A stretch of 64,000 nt of DNA from Spirochaetota bacterium (GTDB taxonomy: Bacteria; Spirochaetota; UBA12135; COTS27), in NCBI GenBank assembly GCA_965249715.1, contig CBDFMP010000048.1, forward strand, positions 69,713-133,712, given 5' to 3'. Positions 14,987-24,470 of this stretch are shown in pieces. The notes under the pieces are model-generated. The model saw only the letters and a program-made list of their open reading frames with translations, was not told the origin of the DNA and made no database searches. The number at the start of each line of letters is the position of its first letter. The stretch's first letter is position 1. The position numbers and the translations under genes were made by a program.

Positions 14987-15061
14987 CTACACCAGCCGCT
15001 AAGCAGCGAGTTGTTGTTTTAGCGGAATTTTGCAGGTAGTAGGCTGGGTTTTTGCTTTCGC

Positions 15062-16477
15062 TTATGTATTGAAGAATACTTTTTTGTTTTTGACGGAAAC
15101 AAGTAATCGCTCGCCTTCGATAACAACAACCTTTGCAAATATTTTTTCAATTTTTCTGATGATAAGCGGATCTATTGAAAATAACGAGAAAAGATATATT
15201 GTTTTAAATAATAGCTTACTGACAAATTCGTCTTTACTTTTATGCCTCAGAATTTTTTCAATGTGATGATGGTCCAAATGCTTAAAACTCATATTAAAAA
15301 CAATAAGGATTTTTTCATGGTTATCACTTAGTTCGGCATTGTTTATATAGATATGATCATTTGTGGAGAATTGAGAGAATGTCCCTGAAATAGCTACATT
15401 TTCTTCTGTGAACAGTTCTGAGAGAATTAAAGCAGCATCAGTCGGTTTAACTTTGGAAAAAAACATAGACAGCTTCTTATCTTCCAGAATGGCTTTATAA
15501 ACAGCTAAGCGTTCATCGGTTTCTTCATAAGCTTTGTGTCCTTTTTGAATGAAAGACATTTGCATGACGGCAGTAATGAGGTCGCCATCCTCAATAAGCA
15601 TTTCGCTGTAGTAATAACGAGCTTTTAAGGTTATGGAAGAATAATCATTGACGTATTTGCTGAGGCTGGAGCGAAAGAGTTTACTGGCATCGCTAAATTG
15701 ACCAAGCTCGCGGTGAGCAATGCCCATGATGGTTTGCACTTCTTCCAGTTTGGCATAATGATGGTCAATGGACTTGCCCACGCTGATGGCTTCCGGGTAG
15801 CGCTCAAGCTTAAAAAGAATACGGACTTCTTTATGGCGCAAGCGGCAGTACCCATACGCGTGTTGCTCACCATTGCTGTGTTTAAGGGCTTGTTGGATAT
15901 GCGCGAGGGCATTGATATAATCGTTATTAATACCGTGCGTATCGCTGAGGAGTTCGGCGAGGCGTATGTTTTGCTGATCTTGGCTAAAGGCTTCTTGTAA
16001 ATGCACCAAAGCGGCATCGTACTTTTTCATATTGAAATAACACTTGCCCGTTTCCATATTCGCGATTAAATGTTTGGGAGCGTGTTTAAGGATCTGCAGA
16101 TATTCCTGTAAAGCACTTTTGGATTTATCAATATTTTCGTAGATTTTCGCTTTTTTTAGATGGATATCCACTTTGCCATTGGGATGAAGGGTTTTCGCGA
16201 TATAAAGTTTTTTTTGAATGATTTCATTGAGGTGAAAGAGTGCCAGGTACCAATGTTTTTTCATGGTATGGGCTTCCCAATAGGCCAGATGTACTTCTAG
16301 CGTAGCTTTCTTTTTTTGTGGCAGGCCGTTAAGAATGGAGAGCGCTAAGTCGGCTTGTTCACTGCGTATGTAGCCATTGAATTTTTCCATTTCACGTGGA
16401 AAAATATAAGTATTGTAAATTAACGGATAGGAGAGAATGGCGCCAACGATACAAGATGCTAAGATTACGTAAAACAT
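15062..16477 (-). CDS. Membrane-anchored TPR-repeat protein with an unassigned C-terminal domain
   Basis: 471 aa. N-terminal TM (MFYVILASCIVGAILSYPLI) and repeated TPR-like A/Y/L patterns. I cannot assign the last ~130 aa. Confidence 0.6.
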   Translation of the reverse strand: MFYVILASCIVGAILSYPLIYNTYIFPREMEKFNGYIRSEQADLALSILNGLPQKKKATLEVHLAYWEAHTMKKHWYLALFHLNEIIQKKLYIAKTLHPNGKVDIHLKKAKIYENIDKSKSALQEYLQILKHAPKHLIANMETGKCYFNMKKYDAALVHLQEAFSQDQQNIRLAELLSDTHGINNDYINALAHIQQALKHSNGEQHAYGYCRLRHKEVRILFKLERYPEAISVGKSIDHHYAKLEEVQTIMGIAHRELGQFSDASKLFRSSLSKYVNDYSSITLKARYYYSEMLIEDGDLITAVMQMSFIQKGHKAYEETDERLAVYKAILEDKKLSMFFSKVKPTDAALILSELFTEENVAISGTFSQFSTNDHIYINNAELSDNHEKILIVFNMSFKHLDHHHIEKILRHKSKDEFVSKLLFKTIYLFSLFSIDPLIIRKIEKIFAKVVVIEGERLLVSVKNKKVFFNT

Positions 16478-16708
16478 AATAAATTCTTTCCTAAAAACCC
16501 CCTTAATCGCTTATTTGAAATATTACTTAATTTTCGGCTTAAAGCTAATAACTATCGTAGTATTTTCCTAAGCCTGAGTTTACCAAGCACCCCACAATTT
16601 AAATGCGGACTTTCGCTGGCGACGCAAAGCTACCTTTGCATCAGGCTATGCCGATTCCACCTCAGGTAAAAACAGATACTAGATGAACGGGGGATTGAAT
16701 GAGGAACT

Positions 16709-16736
16709 AAAACCAGTATAAACATTTACTGGTTTT
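16709..16736. other. 9-bp-stem hairpin in a 420-bp non-coding spacer
   Basis: aaaaccagt(16709-16717)/actggtttt(16728-16736) with a 10-nt loop. The only U-run lies within the stem itself. Confidence 0.3.
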
Positions 16737-16901
16737 AAATGGTCAACGGGAATAATGGATATGGTTCAGAAAATACTGAATAAGCTATAAATTCATAGAT
16801 TTAAAATAACACAGCAATACCTATGGTTGAAACTGACCCACGCTAATTATATTATTAATCTAGAATTTCAAGTGGATTTTTTTAGCTTATATTTTTTAGA
16901 A

Positions 16902-18332
16902 TTATGCGATGGTAAATTTTACTGTTTGCGTGACTTGCTTAAAAATAGCTTCATTGGCTGCAAGTGTTTTAGCGCAGATGAGCACATTACCGGCTTTCAT
17001 AAGGTTATTTTGCGGTTTATGTACAGTATCACCTTTTTTAATGTGGATGAATAATGCGGCGACGCCTTGAATATTGGCGGCATTGGCAACGCCGCTTATG
17101 TCCATGACCATGCCCGGTTCGGTAATTAGTGCGCGTTCACAGACAATAGGACGTTTAGCAGGCTCCCAAGCTTCCAGGCTGCTGGGTTTGATGCCAAAAC
17201 TAGTCTCAAGCAATGCCTGCATTAAGTTGCAGCCCAAATGCAGCGGCGTTGTCCAACCGGACATGTAGCCACCGGAAAGCCGCGCCGCTACTTCGCCAAT
17301 ATAGGCTTTGCCGCGATAAATGCGAAGATCGCCCTTAGCAGCGCCATTTTCGATGCCCAGTGCCAGAATAGCTTGTTTGAACAGCGCGCAGGCTGCTTGT
17401 TGCTGCACTGCGGAAATGTTGCTGGGCGGCAGCGTGTGCCCTGTTTCAACAAAATATGGCGGATAAGCGATGATCCGCTCAGCAATGCCGCGGATGAAAA
17501 TTTCGCCGTTATGGACAATGGCATCGATGGAAAGCTCTGGGCCTGGCAGGTATTCTTCTAAGATGAGGGCATTGCTGCGTGAAAATGCGAGGCTTTCCTG
17601 CAGCGACGTGGTGAGACTTGCGCGATTGTCTATGCGTTTGACGCCGCGGCTCCCCATGGAGTCTGCTGGTTTTAGCACCAATGGGTAGGATAACTGTTTT
17701 TCTATTTGCGGTACCAATTTTAACGCACTGCCCGCAGCCATGTTTTCCAATGCCATATACCGCGGCTGTGCCAGTCCCGCTGCCGCCAAACAGTTACGCA
17801 TAAGAATTTTATGACTTGCCGTACGCGCGTCGCTAAGGCTCAAAGTAGGGGGCGGTACGCTGATACCAGGAATGGGATTAGCATACAGCGATTTTAACGT
17901 TGCATTCAGCACGGCGACAGTGGGGGTGTAGTCGTTTCCTACGGTCACCGCACATTCCAAACGTCCCTGTGTATTGCTGGACGTTCCCTGTACCGTTGGT
18001 GCTTTATGGGCTGAAATTCGTCCTATTTCCACCGGCTGATTACGGGCGATCGTTTTATAGGCCTGGTGCGCGCCGCGCTCCAGGTGGTTCACCAGCGCAC
18101 GCCGTGCCGCTTCACGCTCGCCAATACTTGCAGGAATAAACTGTGCCTGCGGCACCAGCTGTACGCCCGGTGCTTGGGGATTCCTGTCCATCACGCATAC
18201 ATGCATATTATGTGCCTGGGCGCACAGGATGAGCGGCACTTGCATAATGCCGCCACCCACCACTAATATGCCCCTGCCAGACAATTTTGCATTATGGGGT
18301 TGTTTTGTGGCAGGTATGGTTGTCTTTAGCAT
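16902..18332 (-). CDS. ATP-grasp domain protein (carboxylate-amine ligase family, substrate unknown)
   Basis: 476 aa. N-terminal Rossmann-like GILVVGGGIMQVPLI..VCVMD and ATP-grasp-like core ..YPLVLKPADSMGSRGV...LILEEYLPGPELSIDA. Confidence 0.65.
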   Translation of the reverse strand: MLKTTIPATKQPHNAKLSGRGILVVGGGIMQVPLILCAQAHNMHVCVMDRNPQAPGVQLVPQAQFIPASIGEREAARRALVNHLERGAHQAYKTIARNQPVEIGRISAHKAPTVQGTSSNTQGRLECAVTVGNDYTPTVAVLNATLKSLYANPIPGISVPPPTLSLSDARTASHKILMRNCLAAAGLAQPRYMALENMAAGSALKLVPQIEKQLSYPLVLKPADSMGSRGVKRIDNRASLTTSLQESLAFSRSNALILEEYLPGPELSIDAIVHNGEIFIRGIAERIIAYPPYFVETGHTLPPSNISAVQQQAACALFKQAILALGIENGAAKGDLRIYRGKAYIGEVAARLSGGYMSGWTTPLHLGCNLMQALLETSFGIKPSSLEAWEPAKRPIVCERALITEPGMVMDISGVANAANIQGVAALFIHIKKGDTVHKPQNNLMKAGNVLICAKTLAANEAIFKQVTQTVKFTIA

Positions 18333-18655: not shown

Positions 18656-20072
18656 ATGAAAAGACTCCTACTCATTTCTTCCGTGCTTGTGGCAGGGTTG
18701 ACTTCATACGTGTTTGCTGCCGGCTATACTGCTGGTGTTAGCATTGATGCACGTGTTGGTGGTTACATAGTTGGTGGCGGCACTGCTTTTGAAACGTTTA
18801 CTGTAGAAACGACTACAGATTCTACAGGCGCAGTGGTTTACCAACAAGTTCCCGGTACTGGTCAGGCAATTGGCGATAACGCGCAGGAATATGACACCAC
18901 TAAAATTACATTTGATGCCAGCATTGACAATGTTTCTGCATCCGTCACATTTGCGGCTAACAGCGTAGATGGGGGGGCAACTAACTTCATCACACTTGAT
19001 TCTTTCAATGTAAAAGCCAGTGATCTATTTGGTATGTTGACACTTCAGTTTTATGACTGGGGTTATTCTGCAGGCAGCTCAGCCAATGAAGGCGATTACA
19101 TTCTATCAGACATTGGGTTTCCATGGTTTTTATGCCACTGTTAAGCCTATTGATATTCTCAGTATTGGTCTCGGTTTTGGTGTGAATACAGATAGCATTC
19201 GCGGTGTGCGGCTTGATTTCGGTATTGGCGGTCCCGTTCCTACGGATATTTATCTTGGTGTTGTTATTAATAGCATTGATAACGAAGATGATGCTGGTCA
19301 TGTTAAAGAAGGTACCATTGAGCGTCTGCAGGCAGGTTTCCAATCTAAGCTTTACGGCGATTATGTGAAACTAAGCTTCGGTATTACTCCACTTGGTACT
19401 GCTGTCAGTTACCTTGAGACTACCGCTACGGGTACAATAATTGTAAATACAGATGATGATGGCGTTGAGACATATACGAATGAAATACGCAGCTGCCGCT
19501 GATACAACTACGGAAATTAACTTTGTAGTTGATATTTCAGGCAGCGCTTCTTTCCTAGGCGGGCTTTTCAGCTTGGGTTATGGCGTGCAGTACGCAGCGC
19601 CTACTCTTACTAAAGCACTAGCTGCAGGTGGCGGCGGTCTTACTGGAGATGGTGTCGCAGTCGCTTATCCCACTGACTTCGGTTATCAGGCTATTTATAA
19701 CGGTGGTACTGACCTCTTGGAAGACATTGCTGTGAAACATTAATCCTGCTGTTACTGTTGGGCAATTCACTGTTTCACTGCCTATTAAGTTTGAGCTTTA
19801 CGGCACTACTTATGGCGGTTATCAGTTGCGTCAGGATCCAGTGTATATCATTGACATTGACGCCGACCATTAAGTGGTCGCCTGCTTCTGGCATTAGCGT
19901 CGTAGCGCTTATTGGTATTGACCTGATCAATACTTCTATAGGCGATCTCAATACTGATATTGGTGTTGGCTTTGTTGATCAAGGTCATACCAGCGGTGAA
20001 ACTGGTTTTGGTATTGATGATATTTTCGGACAGCTTCAAGTAGCTGCTTCATTCGGAGTATCTTCTGAGTAA
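18656..20072 (+). pseudogene. Secreted or surface protein gene of unknown family (~470 codons) interrupted by four successive +1 frameshifts
   Basis: Signal peptide MKRLLLISSVLVAGLTSYVFA. The reading frame moves from frame 2 (18656) to frame 0 (~19110), frame 1 (~19485), frame 2 (~19745) and frame 0 (~19865). The last two shifts are 1-nt length differences relative to the in-frame partial copy at 20192-20618. Confidence 0.7.
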
Positions 20073-20140
20073 GTTTTGTTATTTAGTTTTAGCGGGTTAG
20101 GCGATTAACAAAAAATCGTCCTGAGCTCGGTTAAAGCCTA

Positions 20141-20185
20141 AAGCCCACGCAGGATGCCAGTTGGTATTCTGCGTGGGCTTTTTTT
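20141..20185 (+). terminator. Rho-independent terminator, copy 1 of 4
   Basis: Stem gcccacgcag (20143-20152) / ctgcgtgggc (20169-20178), followed by T7 (20179-20185). Confidence 0.85.
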
Positions 20186-20191
20186 GTCGAT

Positions 20192-20618
20192 TGGAGAGGG
20201 TATCGCAGTTGCTTATCCCGATAACTTCGGTTATCAGGCTATTTATAACGGTGGTACTGACCTCTTGGAAGACATTGCTGTGAAAATTGTTCCCGCTGTT
20301 ACTGTTGGGCAATTCACTGTTTCACTGCCTATTAAGTTTGAGCTTTACGGCACTACTTATGGCGGTTATCAGTTGCGTCAGGATCCAGTGTATATCATTG
20401 ACGTTGAGCCGACTATTAAGTGGTCGCCTGCTGCTGGCATTACCGTCAAAGCGCTTATTGGTATTGACCTGATCAATACTTCTGTAGGCGATTTCAATAC
20501 TGATATTGGTATTGGCTTTGTTGATCAAGGTCATACCAGCGGTGAAACTGGTTTTGGTATTGATGATATTTTTGGACAGCTTCAAGTAGCTGCTTCATTC
20601 GGAATATCTTCTGAGTAA
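20192..20618 (+). pseudogene. Promoterless, frame-intact copy of the last ~140 codons of the 18656-20072 gene (3' cassette)
   Basis: Homology to 19644-20072 begins immediately after terminator copy 1. There are no frameshifts and many substitutions, and the stop is at 20616-20618. Confidence 0.8.
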
Positions 20619-20685
20619 GTTTTGTTATTTAGTTTTAGCGGGTTAGGCGATTAACAAAAAATCGTCTGAGCTCGGTTAAAGCCTA

Positions 20686-20730
20686 AAGCCCACGCAGGAT
20701 GCCAGTTGGTATTCTGCGTGGGCTTTTTTT
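20686..20730 (+). terminator. Rho-independent terminator, copy 2 of 4
   Basis: Same stem at 20688-20697 / 20714-20723, followed by T7 (20724-20730). Confidence 0.85.
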
Positions 20731-20906
20731 GTCGATGTTAGTGTAGGGGGCTATTTATAACGTGGTACTGACCTCTTGGGTCTGTGTGCCGATTGCTGTT
20801 ATGAGGTTTCGTTGGCGGCGCGCGGGGGGGCGTTGCATTGCGATGGGAGGACGTAGGCTTTCCGTGAGTGTCTTATTGTTTATCGTAGTGATGTTAGAAT
20901 TAGTAT

Positions 20907-21910
20907 ATGGGAAAGTGGAGTAAGCTGGTGCAGATTTTGGCATTCGGAATATTTTAAAGAGAATTACTGCTCGTGGCTTTGGTCAATAGTTATTATTTTA
21001 AGTATAGTTGGATGTGCATATTGGTTAGGCTTATGCTTTAATGAGAGTAAAGCTAATTAGTGTATTTAATTGCTACTATAATGATAGGAATATTTACGCC
21101 TGCTTTTACTATTTCTGAATACAGGAACATATAAATCAGAATTTCAGTTAAAAGAAGTTCATAGTGAGGATACTCGGTCTTAAGGACCGCTCATGCTGAT
21201 ATATCGGTCAGTTAAGAAAGGATCATGGTGAGGATAGTCGGTCAGTTAAAAGAAATTTATGACAGTAAGCTTAAGGCACAAAAAATAGCAATTTGATAAC
21301 AATAAAATTGTTTTTTTGGGTTCACGTATCTTATGGAAATTGCAGAAAAGTTAATTGAAGAAGTAACCAAGAGACAAGGAATATGAAAATTTGGATCTGA
21401 TGAAAGGATTTGTGTTTATAGGTATTTTTCCAAAGAAAGGGGGTTTAGGTGTATTGGACGTTATTCAAAAGTAGATCCAGAATTAAATAAATTTGTCGAG
21501 AATAAATTATTATCAGTGAAGGATTTATATCTAACGTATTTAAGAAAACCGATTGGGTAGAAGCAATAGCTTCCAAGTATTCCACATGATAATAGGATGC
21601 AGTATAGAGCGTTGGAAACGATACAGGGCGGATAGATCATATAAAAGAGGAGGATCAAGGCTTTTCCTTAAGAGGTATCAGAGCATATATTAAAGAGGAG
21701 CATGGACTTACGCCTGATGTTTATGAAAAATTTCGCATGAATGCTGAGCATATGATTGCTAAAAAATTACAGGATAAAACAGCTATAGGCGTTATTGTGT
21801 TTGAAAGCTGCCGCAAGGATTTTCTTTCATTGGAATGTATAAAAAAAGCTTGCACTAAGAATGATGAGCAGTTTATAATTAGGATGATATGTGATCATTT
21901 TCATGAATAA
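20907..21910 (+). pseudogene. Decayed copy of the 2-TM cassette gene (paralogue of 22745-23611)
   Basis: Upstream region and first ~23 nt are identical to those of 22745. A stop follows after 16 codons. Internal fragments are recognisable (CVYRYFSKERGFRCIGRYSK.., ~21410-21540) with in-frame stops. The C-terminal ~80 codons (21660-21910) are still alignable, including FRMNAEHMIAK. Confidence 0.75.
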
Positions 21911-21930
21911 GCATAATTAATGGATGAGGG

Positions 21931-22476
21931 ATGATGACAACAGCGACAATTGCAGAGAGCCAAACGATTCTTATGGACGTTATGGCTTATATTTGTAAAA
22001 GATATAGTAGCCCGGAAGAACTTTCCAAAGCAAGGCTGACGAAGCTAATTTATTTGGCGGATTGGAGGTCTGCTAAGACTAAGAGTGATAACAGTCAAAT
22101 CACGAATATTAAATGGTATTTTAATCATTACGGGCCTTATGTGGATGATGTGGTGGATGTGATCATTGATCACGAGGACACTTTTAAGCTTGACCCCGGT
22201 ACTAATATTTATGGTGGTGTCCGTGATCTTGTGAGGTTAAAAAAAGCGGATTACGAGTATGGGCAGCTGCAACGAGAGGAAGACAAAAAGCTCTTGGATG
22301 AAATTATTACTAGGAGTGCAGGGTTGAATTGGACTAGATTTATAGACTTAGTTTATTCATCTTACCCTATTACAGTTTCCGAACGCTATGCTCAGCTTGA
22401 TTTGCCAGCTTTAGCAAGAGAGTACAAAGAGCGCGAAAGCAAGCCGCATTTCGAGCTTATTGCTGATGACATTTAG
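21931..22476 (+). CDS. Panacea/DUF4065 (SocA/GepA-like) antitoxin-domain protein, copy 1
   Basis: 181 aa. Strings RLTKLIYLADW..WYFNHYGPYVDDV fit the DUF4065 pattern (KLxKLLY..W..GPV). About 65% identical by eye to 23671-24213. Confidence 0.7.
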   Translation: MMTTATIAESQTILMDVMAYICKRYSSPEELSKARLTKLIYLADWRSAKTKSDNSQITNIKWYFNHYGPYVDDVVDVIIDHEDTFKLDPGTNIYGGVRDLVRLKKADYEYGQLQREEDKKLLDEIITRSAGLNWTRFIDLVYSSYPITVSERYAQLDLPALAREYKERESKPHFELIADDI

Positions 22477-22541
22477 TCGCGTAGTTGTAATTTTTAAGGC
22501 TGGATGATTTAACTAATCGTCTGAAGCCCGATTAAAGCCTA

Positions 22542-22586
22542 AAGCCCACGCAGGATGCCAGTTGGTATTCTGCGTGGGCTTTTTTT
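22542..22586 (+). terminator. Rho-independent terminator, copy 3 of 4
   Basis: Stem at 22544-22553 / 22570-22579, followed by T7 (22580-22586). Confidence 0.85.
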
Positions 22587-22744
22587 GTCGATGTTAGTGT
22601 AGGGGTCGCGTGGGGGGGTCTGTGTGCCGATTGCTGTTATGAGGTTTCGTTGGCGGCGCGCGGGGGGGCGTTGCATTGCGATGGGAGGACGTAGGCTTTC
22701 CGTGAGTGTCTTATTGTTTATCGTAGTGATGTTAGAATTAGTAT

Positions 22745-23611
22745 ATGGGAAAGTGGAGTAAGCTGGAGCAGATTTGGGGATTCATAAAAGAAAACTACCG
22801 TTGGTGGGTTTTATATATATGTATATTGGGTGTTGTTAGCCTACTTGCAGATTCAAGTGAGCTAATGAGGTGTTTAAGACAACAAAAGTTAGGGTTAGTG
22901 GAGTGTTTTAGGCAACTAAATTTTGTATATTCTTTTACAACTCTCTTGGGACCGCTAGCTATATATGGTTTTGAGGAATGGAGAAAGTCTAAACTGAAAA
23001 AATCTTACAAGGAAAAATTTGAGAACCTGGAAATAACGTTTAAGGAGAATAGCTTAGACTTACATCTTACGTTAATTATAAAAAAATTAAATGCTCTAGC
23101 AGCAGCAAATAATCAGGCATTTGGAACCACTGAAAGACTTTGTATTTATAAACATTTTCCAAGAACTGAAAATGAAGGAGAATGTTTTAGGTGTGTCGGG
23201 CGTCGTTCAAGCAATAAAGAACTTGCCAAATTTACTAAGGATAATCTATATCCTATTGGGAATGGATTTATATCAAAAGTATATCGTGAGGGCAATGAGT
23301 GGTTGGTAGATAGGGATTTTCTGAGTATTTCGCCTGATGATAGGGATCGTATATTGCGAGGGGAGCATCCTGGTTCACTTGAGCAGTATCGAGCAGATAT
23401 TAAAAGGAGGCATGGGATTACAAGGGAGACTTCCAAAAGCTTTCGCATGAATGCTGAGCATATGATTGCTAAACAACTAAAGGATCATAACAATGAGGAG
23501 GTTATTGGAGTTATTTTATTTGAAAGTCAACGTAAGAATTTCCTTTCATTAGAGCTTATAAAAAAATCTTGCACAGAAACAGATGAGCAGCTTATAATTA
23601 ATATGATGTGA
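22745..23611 (+). CDS. 2-TM membrane protein with an unassigned ~160-aa C-terminal domain (GAF-like or HEPN-like strings); putative toxin/effector partner of the Panacea protein
   Basis: 288 aa. TM segments RWWVLYICILGVVSLLA and FVYSFTTLLGPLAIYGF, then a charged linker. C-terminal strings YPIGNGFISKV and EVIGVILFES, plus RMNAEH (an R-x4-H motif, nt 23444-23461). No SD; TAGAAT (22733-22738) lies 6 nt before the ATG. Confidence 0.6.
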   Translation: MGKWSKLEQIWGFIKENYRWWVLYICILGVVSLLADSSELMRCLRQQKLGLVECFRQLNFVYSFTTLLGPLAIYGFEEWRKSKLKKSYKEKFENLEITFKENSLDLHLTLIIKKLNALAAANNQAFGTTERLCIYKHFPRTENEGECFRCVGRRSSNKELAKFTKDNLYPIGNGFISKVYREGNEWLVDRDFLSISPDDRDRILRGEHPGSLEQYRADIKRRHGITRETSKSFRMNAEHMIAKQLKDHNNEEVIGVILFESQRKNFLSLELIKKSCTETDEQLIINMM

Positions 23612-23670
23612 ATGGTTTATGATACATAGGGCACTAAGTTTTGTATAGCTTCATACATGGATGACAGGAT

Positions 23671-24213
23671 ATGACAACGGCAGTAGCTGCAGAAAGCCAA
23701 ACAATACTTATGGATGTTATGGCTTATATTTGTAAAAAATATCCTTATGCGAGAGCTCTTTCTAAGGGAAGGCTGACGAAGCTGATTTACTTAGCAGATT
23801 GGAAGTCTGCTAAGGATAGAGGCAGGCAGATTACGGATATTGAATGGCACTATAATCATTATGGTCCTTATGTGGATGATGTGGTGGATGTGGTTATTAA
23901 ACACGATGACATTTTTGAGCTTGAAGCTGACACTAATATTTATGGTAGTATGAATGATCTTGTGAAGCTAAAAAAAGCAGATTATGGATATAAGAAGTTG
24001 CAGCAATTGGATGAGGATAAAAAGATCTTAAGTGAAATTATTGATAAGAGTGTAAAGTTAAATTGGACTGATTTTATTCAGTTAGTCTATTCATCATATC
24101 CTCTTAAGGTTTCTAAGCGTTATCAAGATCTTGACTTGCCGGTTTTAGCAAGAAAATACAAAAAGAGTAGACGCTGGTGGCTGAATTTTGAGCTTATTGC
24201 CGATGACATTTAG
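23671..24213 (+). CDS. Panacea/DUF4065 (SocA/GepA-like) antitoxin-domain protein, copy 2
   Basis: 180 aa. Strings RLTKLIYLADW..WHYNHYGPYVDDV. Lies 59 nt downstream of 22745-23611 and is followed by terminator copy 4. Confidence 0.7.
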   Translation: MTTAVAAESQTILMDVMAYICKKYPYARALSKGRLTKLIYLADWKSAKDRGRQITDIEWHYNHYGPYVDDVVDVVIKHDDIFELEADTNIYGSMNDLVKLKKADYGYKKLQQLDEDKKILSEIIDKSVKLNWTDFIQLVYSSYPLKVSKRYQDLDLPVLARKYKKSRRWWLNFELIADDI

Positions 24214-24271
24214 CAGCGTAGTTGTAATTTTTTAGGCTGGATGATTTAACTAGTCGTCTGAGTCTATTAGT

Positions 24272-24316
24272 AAGCCCACGCAGGATGCCAGTTGGTATTC
24301 TGTGTGGGCTTTTTTT
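24272..24316 (+). terminator. Rho-independent terminator, copy 4 of 4
   Basis: Stem at 24274-24283 / 24300-24309 (one G-U pair), followed by T7 (24310-24316). Could also serve the convergent kdsB. Confidence 0.8.
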
Positions 24317-24470
24317 GTCGATGTTAGTGTAAGGGGGAGCTCCGTGTGCGATTGCTGTTAGTGAGTTCGTGCGGAGCTGGCACGACGAGCTCAGGTGACG
24401 GAGAATGCTGTGAAGTATTAGCTAAATTAAGGGATAAGCCAGTTAGTCGTCAGTCCTTGACTGACGCGTC

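Follow-up and report, generated by a model that had tools for sequence, protein, structure and literature searches.

A stretch of 64 kb from a Spirochaetota bacterium (contig CBDFMP010000048.1, positions 69,713 to 133,712; hereafter the window, to which all coordinates refer unless a homologue locus is named) contains a two-gene cassette, here called cassette B, which is probably a toxin–antitoxin module of the Panacea type. The first open reading frame (ORF) encodes the putative toxin of 288 amino acids (aa), and the second, which follows on the same (+) strand after a spacer of 59 nucleotides (nt), encodes the 180-aa putative antitoxin PanA-B. PanA-B matches the Pfam model PF13274 (SocA_Panacea) with 48.9 bits (cut-off 25.7; E = 1.5e-12) over residues 35–141 (nt 23773–24093), and no HTH, PAD1, ZBD or extra N-terminal domain was detected in it. 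For the toxin, no significant sequence match was obtained in Pfam, NCBIfam, PADLOC, PHROGs or the PDB sequences. The original prediction, made by a model from the letters of this stretch, had described an intact cassette of these two ORFs with this spacing and had expected PF13274 in the second, and both points were borne out; the motif and promoter strings that it listed (RMNAEH and TAGAAT), the missing Shine–Dalgarno sequence and the cassette's own terminator were also all present as described.

Relatives of the toxin are rare. A word-indexed search returned only the window toxin and a protein of 305 aa, P0002, which is 36–42% identical to it, and phmmer, run exhaustively against 1.84 billion representatives, recovered 22 proteins at E < 1e-3, namely the query, P0002 and 20 more distant relatives. 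Because homologues reach E = 6.6e-36 and 20 more lie below 1e-3, the toxin ORF is not a chance reading frame. All 22 proteins are 163–309 aa long, the shortest being truncated at the N-terminus, and the C-terminal domain is common to all of them. The residues R131, F148, R153, S155, Y169, G174, M235, E260 and S261, which lie in the motifs ER[IV][CS][IV]Y, GR[YF]S, YP..G.I and [IV]FES, are invariant in the family and are all kept in the window toxin. Pattern scans of genome, metagenome and viral collections for loci related to this pair of sequences (P0001/P0002) found none.

Gene context could be read at ten distinct homologue loci, comprising three metagenome contigs (L001–L003), three metagenome-assembled genomes (MAGs; L004, L005 and L007) and four loci from named taxa, i.e., a conjugative plasmid of Vibrio harveyi (L008), Photobacterium aquimaris (L009–L012), Chryseobacterium (L013) and Vibrio cholerae (L015/L016). 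A PF13274 gene lies directly downstream of the toxin homologue in all ten, as expected if the two genes form a genuine pair, while the remaining flanking genes vary; on the V. harveyi plasmid, the neighbour is already annotated as a ‘Panacea domain-containing protein’. The panA start overlaps the toxin stop by 1 to 23 nt in these loci, or follows it by 2 nt. Moreover, toxin and PanA identities co-vary across nine pairs (r = 0.93, Mantel p about 2e-4), the window PanA has long motifs in common with the partner PanAs, to which it is 40–48% identical, and its sole match at E < 1e-10 in 72,556 plasmids is the V. harveyi PanA that adjoins a toxin homologue. The pair has therefore been inherited, and has diverged, as a unit.

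The surroundings of several homologous pairs contain other mobile or defence-related genes. Restriction–modification genes (type I, type ISP) stand directly upstream or downstream of the pair in four loci, the neighbours being ResIII/RE together with Abi_C in L002 (1814–7057), and type I HsdR, type ISP or type I HsdRMS genes in L004 (2864–7283), L005 (2627–7298) and L013 (5001–10864). As well, the P. aquimaris pair of L009 (2576–10903) is located in Tn7-like cargo beside GAPS4, and the V. cholerae pair of L015 (5001–9442) in an island with VspR and helicases.

The AlphaFold2 model of the 288-aa toxin, which was built from a 22-sequence alignment, has a mean pLDDT of 86.7 and a pTM of 0.69, and consists of helices at residues 6–17, 19–45 and 51–121 followed by an alpha/beta domain (130–288) with a six-stranded sheet. 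In a Foldseek search of the PDB, GAF domains are on top (probability 1.0, target-normalised TM-score, TMt, up to 0.70), with 1f5m, 3ci6, free methionine-R-sulfoxide reductases (fRMsr) and GAF domains binding cyclic nucleotides (cNMPs; cAMP/cGMP) among the matches, and the GAF-like C-terminal domain that had been proposed from short strings is thus upheld at the fold level. No Pfam GAF (PF01590) or cNMP-binding match was found for the window toxin, and one of the 22 relatives reaches E = 0.031. The original prediction had also seen in the R-x4-H string RMNAEH (nt 23444–23461) a resemblance to HEPN RNases; this candidate was rejected, as neither position is conserved (among 27 aligned relatives, the R234 column holds R in 14, K in 11 and N in 2, and the H239 column A in 10, S in 9, D in 4, H in 3 and N in 1), and the domain is alpha/beta and GAF-like, not all-alpha.

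Two N-terminal transmembrane helices had been predicted as well. The first (residues 22–40) is clear, while the second (residues 57–75) is marginal in the window toxin, with about 1.2 by hand count against a threshold of 1.4, although it is helical in the model and aligns with a second transmembrane segment that most relatives show clearly. K and R are abundant in the N-termini and in the 20 residues that follow the second segment, and by the positive-inside rule this favours an N-in/C-in helical hairpin, with the long helix and the GAF domain predicted to be cytoplasmic; the call combines hydropathy and charge distribution, which is a crude method. In that orientation, a cytoplasmic PanA could reach both parts.

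This architecture has been catalogued before. Kurata et al. 2022 defined PanAT systems, with 88 toxin clusters, by a DUF4065/SocA_Panacea partner and two same-strand genes at most 100 nt apart, and further by a toxin that inhibits growth, an antitoxin that rescues it and a complex between the two proteins (PMC8832971). As regards sequence, the window pair has the PF13274 domain, the common strand, the 59-nt spacer and linkage across taxa. Cluster T13 (Dataset S1) is toxin-first and mostly overlapping, with at least 19 occurrences, one member of which is a ‘GAF domain-containing protein’; it includes P. aquimaris and Gelidibacter mesophilus (WP_027127282.1/WP_027127283.1), and its members were not assayed in that paper (PMC8832971). 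Subsequently, Ernits et al. 2023 validated the G. mesophilus pair as toxFtsL_D9:PanA, in which the 281-aa toxin WP_027127282.1 bears the annotation ‘GAF; FtsL; transmembrane’ (PMC10440598). Expression of toxFtsL_D9 abolishes colony formation, and the stand-alone Panacea antitoxin neutralises it; the toxin is slow-acting and causes filamentation, FtsZ delocalisation and delayed lysis without membrane depolarisation (PMC10440598). An undescribed toxin family, as the original prediction had supposed, is therefore not at hand, the Panacea-neutralised toxin (PanT) with transmembrane and GAF parts being already known as T13 (Kurata 2022) and toxFtsL_D9 (Ernits 2023).

Several results connect the window toxin with this family. 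A protein of P. aquimaris, a species listed in T13, belongs to the homologue family of the window toxin. A hidden Markov model (HMM) made from relatives only, with the window sequence left out, gives the window toxin 63.4 bits (E = 2e-12 in a search space of 1.84e9 sequences) and P0002 82.9 bits; those of its source proteins that are named come from Vibrio, Photobacterium, Pseudoalteromonas, Aeromonas and Chryseobacterium. Sub-threshold DivIC/FtsL matches were obtained in 6 of 27 relatives (19–25 bits, cut-off 28.9) on the second transmembrane segment and the start of the coiled coil, the published FtsL-like assignment having used HHpred. A genome scan with the group-1 alignment recovered three MAGs only and none of the T13 reference genomes. 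Like toxFtsL_D9:PanA, the window pair is toxin-first with a stand-alone Panacea protein, and the toxin has about 280–300 aa, with transmembrane segments at the N-terminus, then a long helix and, at the C-terminus, a GAF domain. Overall, the window toxin is very likely a member of the toxFtsL/T13/D9 family.

Ligand binding is a classic function of GAF domains, and the pair could accordingly be read as a ligand-gated effector, in which the GAF domain would be a small-molecule sensor or a small enzyme that switches the membrane part on, and PanA a sensor or regulator. The polar site would then consist of E130, R131, R153, S155, Y169, E260 and S261, and the signal might be a nucleotide or a metabolite of phage infection. 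Such a role would suit the presence of cAMP/cGMP-binding GAFs and of the enzyme fRMsr among the top structural matches, the invariance of a set of charged or polar residues in relatives with no more than 20–25% identity, the location of related toxin–PanA pairs in defence islands, and the view favoured by Ernits et al. that Panacea acts as a sensor of unknown cues (PMC10440598). However, the ten loci have no conserved signal-producing enzyme (cyclase, CD-NTase, TIR) beside the pair, and the window toxin lacks the Pfam GAF and cNMP-binding matches mentioned above. The GAF fold is common to the window toxin and to both the cNMP-binding GAFs of phosphodiesterases and cyclases and fRMsr, but the catalytic cysteines of fRMsr are not conserved in the toxin family, the position of C133 being S in 21 of 27 relatives. 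We regard ligand gating as an improbable main explanation; it is also compatible with a toxin–antitoxin module, not exclusive of it.

Structural comparison with viral proteins brings in another candidate, the class III (T4 T-type) holins. The window toxin might be a holin-like killer that makes timed membrane lesions, with the GAF-like globular domain controlling oligomerisation and PanA playing an antiholin-like part, and the ‘FtsL-like’ label would then reflect a generic transmembrane helix plus zipper. Against viral models, the best Foldseek matches are phage proteins of 200–260 aa (E about 1e-6, 244–299 aligned columns), two of which carry a GAF-domain annotation; proteins of about 214 aa from jumbo phages rank fourth and seventh, and further down the list (E 4e-4 to 6e-4) come proteins labelled ‘T holin lysis mediator’, ‘Class III holin’ and ‘Holin’. 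The PDB matches include the periplasmic domain of the T4 holin T with the antiholin RI (6px4/6pxe, TMt about 0.63, E about 2e-4). Both the window toxin and T combine a membrane anchor with a GAF-like alpha/beta globular domain, and each would be a lethal membrane protein restrained by a binding protein, T being regulated by RI and RIII (PMC8385771). In addition, the tested relative causes a delayed, sudden collapse of the culture (PMC10440598), and the DivIC/FtsL matches of the relatives all stay below the Pfam cut-offs. The resemblance to holins is not mentioned in the accessible portions of the toxFtsL paper (PMC10440598).

Nevertheless, the 27 toxin family members show no consistent holin match in Pfam or PHROGs, tblastn found no toxin homologue in 50,697 phage genomes, and the pair has no endolysin and no phage context. 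The window toxin also has no sequence similarity to T and is predicted to form a two-helix hairpin with its GAF domain inside the cell, whereas T has one transmembrane segment and a periplasmic domain (PMC8385771). Moreover, the phenotype of the tested relative differs, since the toxFtsL effect is not due to depolarisation and FtsZ delocalises (Ernits et al., PMC10440598). As the GAF fold is very common, the fold similarity to T is weak evidence by itself, and a holin-like killer seems unlikely.

Among other Panacea-neutralised toxins, the depolarising PanTs (T3 of E. coli, T12/D11 of Bartonella and the Helicobacter PanT) also have predicted transmembrane helices (Kurata 2022, PMC8832971). They are small peptides or coiled-coil proteins with a C-terminal transmembrane segment that depolarise membranes rapidly, whereas the window toxin has N-terminal transmembrane helices and a GAF domain of 160 aa, and its tested relative is non-depolarising. 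The founding DUF4065/Panacea system, SocAB of Caulobacter, is similar to the window pair in that one partner carries PF13274. SocB is a soluble protein that inhibits the DNA polymerase beta-clamp, and its degradation is promoted by SocA, which serves as a ClpXP adaptor. SocB is not known to resemble the window toxin.

By repeat analysis, cassette B is the second of two tandem diverged units; unit A extends from about 20750 to 22525, and cassette A within it (20907–22476) had been overlooked. The features of both cassettes are listed in Table 1. The cassette A toxin survives as remnants of residues 1–13, 13–48, 126–170 and 171–288 with at least four in-frame stops, and its coiled-coil middle is unrecognisable, while the antitoxin PanA-A is intact. 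PanA-A and PanA-B are 67% identical, with a synonymous divergence (dS) of 0.5–0.7 and a ratio of nonsynonymous to synonymous divergence (dN/dS) of 0.30–0.42, and for the dead toxin, the final 51 codons that can be aligned have a dN/dS of 0.22. It follows from these values that the cassettes are two old alleles, both functional for most of their history. PanA-A has been kept under purifying selection and is now without a working cognate toxin, the cassette A toxin was lost recently, and the flanks of the two units have been homogenised. A decayed toxin beside a retained antitoxin is the pattern that toxin–antitoxin logic predicts.

The leader and the first 13 toxin codons (20778–20945 and 22616–22783; 168 nt) are 98% identical between the two units, in contrast to about 77% for the cassette bodies, and a partial copy of the leader module occurs at about 24320–24380; gene conversion or a portable promoter module is suggested behind these near-identical leaders. 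A 40-nt terminator hairpin is likewise repeated, being found four times within 4.2 kb (20141–20180, 20686–20725, 22542–22581 and 24272–24311) and nowhere else in the window, when up to 3 mismatches were allowed and 0 matches were expected by chance. This hairpin brackets the repeated units and is likely the substrate of the tandem duplications.

Table 1. Features of the tandem toxin–PanA locus (window coordinates).
Feature	Coordinates	Strand	Remarks
Terminator hairpin before cassette A	20685–20726	+	19-bp stem and T-run
Leader/promoter module of cassette A	20778–20906	+	G+C-rich; 98% identical to 22616–22744
Toxin pseudogene of cassette A	20907–21910	+	Remnants in three frames
PanA-A, intact Panacea paralogue	21931–22476	+	181 aa; PF13274, 40.6 bits, E = 5.5e-10
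Terminator hairpin between cassettes A and B	22541–22582	+	
Leader/promoter module of cassette B	22616–22744	+	G+C-rich
Toxin gene of cassette B	22745–23611	+	Uninterrupted 288-aa ORF; very likely a divergent toxFtsL/PanT-T13/D9 family member
First transmembrane helix, about residues 20–40	22802–22864	+	Model and hydropathy; clearly hydrophobic, Kyte–Doolittle 1.78
Second hydrophobic helix, about residues 57–76	22913–22972	+	Model and hydropathy; continuous with the long helix
Long charged alpha-helix, about residues 77–121	22973–23107	+	Coiled-coil/‘FtsL-like’ region of relatives
GAF-fold domain, about residues 126–288	23120–23608	+	Model, Foldseek and family alignment
Sigma-70-like site, TGCACA-17-TATAAT	23570–23598	+	Best match of the region, 10/12; within the toxin 3′ end
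PanA antitoxin gene (PanA-B) of cassette B	23671–24213	+	180-aa ORF
Terminator closing cassette B	24272–24318	+	Hairpin with 19-bp stem, then T-run

Several points weigh against reading cassette B as a toxFtsL-type module. The tie to the G. mesophilus toxin runs through a shared species, gene arrangement and architecture, not through a direct alignment, and the evidence for toxicity and for the division phenotype comes from one family member, expressed in E. coli only. With 21–28% identity to the others, the window toxin stands furthest apart in its family, its second transmembrane segment is only marginally hydrophobic, and, unlike some relatives, it has no DivIC/FtsL match at E ≤ 0.1 despite the long helix at 51–121. 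Literal mimicry of FtsL is doubtful, because the FtsL zipper is periplasmic and the ‘FtsL-like’ helix of the toxin is predicted to be cytoplasmic. Furthermore, the window genes are 59 nt apart, compared with overlapping genes or a spacing of 2 nt in relatives, and the window toxin and P0002 are without the extra C-terminal helix and the acidic-aromatic tail (..A.EEGF/GY, ..AKEAQL) of most relatives. Finally, a defence role is drawn only from neighbourhood.

Other differences from toxFtsL_D9:PanA are the tandem of two cassettes with one dead toxin and an additional C-terminal tail on the window PanA. Both window PanAs end in ..(N/H)FELIADDI (..NFELIADDI in PanA-B, at 24160–24210), which is absent from other PanAs. 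The tail difference between the window pair and its relatives (toxin 23540–23608, PanA 24160–24210) may reflect a re-wired interface or a degradation tag.

The lost tail, the loose coupling of the two genes and the death of the neighbouring cassette A toxin might also be taken as signs that both cassettes came with an old insertion and are now decaying, with a toxin that is silent or no longer toxic in this host and functionless PanAs, and the toxin gene is preceded by no canonical -35 box or Shine–Dalgarno sequence. Such an inert remnant is hard to reconcile with a 288-aa ORF that is uninterrupted and keeps every family-invariant residue, with the high predicted fold confidence of its model, and with the dN/dS of 0.2–0.4 that the PanA paralogues show, as do the last 51 codons for which the dead toxin can be aligned. 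In addition, P0002, the closest relative, is also without the tail, and its absence is thus a trait of the subfamily and not decay. Inertness of the whole locus is accordingly considered highly improbable.

In cassette B, an extended -10-like element, TGtTAGAAT (22730–22738; TAGAAT itself at 22733–22738), is located 6 nt upstream of the toxin ATG, and no AGGAGG-like Shine–Dalgarno sequence occurs in the sequence before it; the toxin mRNA may be leaderless, with which the sequence is compatible. A simple sigma-70 scan called no promoter in this leader, which it missed because of the poor -35 box. The predicted fold of the leader RNA is no different from that of shuffled sequences (z = -0.67), and tRNA and Rfam scans of the window were empty. 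Antitoxin-only promoters are common in toxin-first modules, and the sigma-70-like site within the toxin 3′ end, which lies 73 nt upstream of the PanA ATG and whose TATAAT is also present in copy A, is a possible promoter of this kind.

With regard to the setting, the G+C content of cassette B is 0.37, compared with 0.47 for the window and 0.54 for the adjoining kdsB. Housekeeping genes flank the locus, with sufBC, pyrG, a ubiA-like gene, TPR and ATP-grasp genes on one side and kdsB, purF and carB on the other. A second stretch of low G+C content (0.32–0.38, 15000–16999) corresponds to a gene for a TPR-repeat protein (15062–16477, minus strand) among housekeeping genes. Upstream of unit A, a gene for a surface-like protein with a signal-peptide-like N-terminus (18656–20666) is split into the overlapping ORFs 18656–19144, 19053–19502 and 19453–19743, for which no Pfam or NCBIfam match was found. 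About 480 nt at its 3′ end are present in tandem (19644–20120 and 20192–20666; 94–96% identity, period about 547 nt), and after each copy stands the same terminator hairpin as in the toxin–antitoxin cassettes. A frameshift in a gene that has a silent 3′ cassette could account for this arrangement, which may be a variation locus.

Taken as a whole, the cassette is probably a chromosomal type II PanAT module, in which a toxFtsL (T13/D9) toxin is silenced by PanA and, when freed, interferes with the divisome and then causes lysis. The toxin would insert in the inner membrane via its N-terminal helical hairpin, with a predicted N-in/C-in orientation, so that the long helix and the GAF-fold domain would face the cytoplasm. 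There, the stand-alone Panacea protein encoded downstream would bind the toxin directly and hold it inactive. Once PanA is lost or displaced, the free toxin would be expected to act slowly, like its tested relative, by blocking divisome assembly, with FtsZ delocalisation and filamentation, and then lysing the cell with no depolarisation. Of the two old diverged cassettes that stand in tandem here, the first has lost its toxin to decay and retained its antitoxin. The module might function in abortive-infection-type defence or in the stabilisation of a genomic island; it is by association, from the neighbourhoods of the relatives, that a defence or addiction role is suggested.

A bolder reading would treat toxFtsL/T13 toxins, the window toxin included, not as FtsL mimics but as inward-facing structural counterparts of T4-type class III holins, in which a membrane hairpin is joined to a GAF-like control domain. 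The invariant polar site (E130/R131/R153/S155/E260/S261) would sense the trigger, PanA would be antiholin-like, and the tail swap, in which the acidic-aromatic tail is absent from the toxin and ..FELIADDI is present on both PanA paralogues, would be a re-wired interface. This proposal is a speculative one with a rather small chance of being right.

The pair opens no new class, since Panacea-neutralised toxins with transmembrane and GAF parts were catalogued in 2022 and one was validated in 2023. Instead, it adds to the family a very divergent subfamily, which amounts to two sequences among about 15 billion proteins and is without the family's C-terminal tail. It provides leads for specialists in toxin–antitoxin systems and phage defence, and the natural tandem of a decayed toxin with a retained antitoxin is convenient for work on cross-neutralisation. 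The finding also bears on the mechanism of toxFtsL, in that a coiled coil and a GAF domain predicted to be cytoplasmic fit poorly with periplasmic FtsL mimicry, and T4-type holins are among the viral structural matches.

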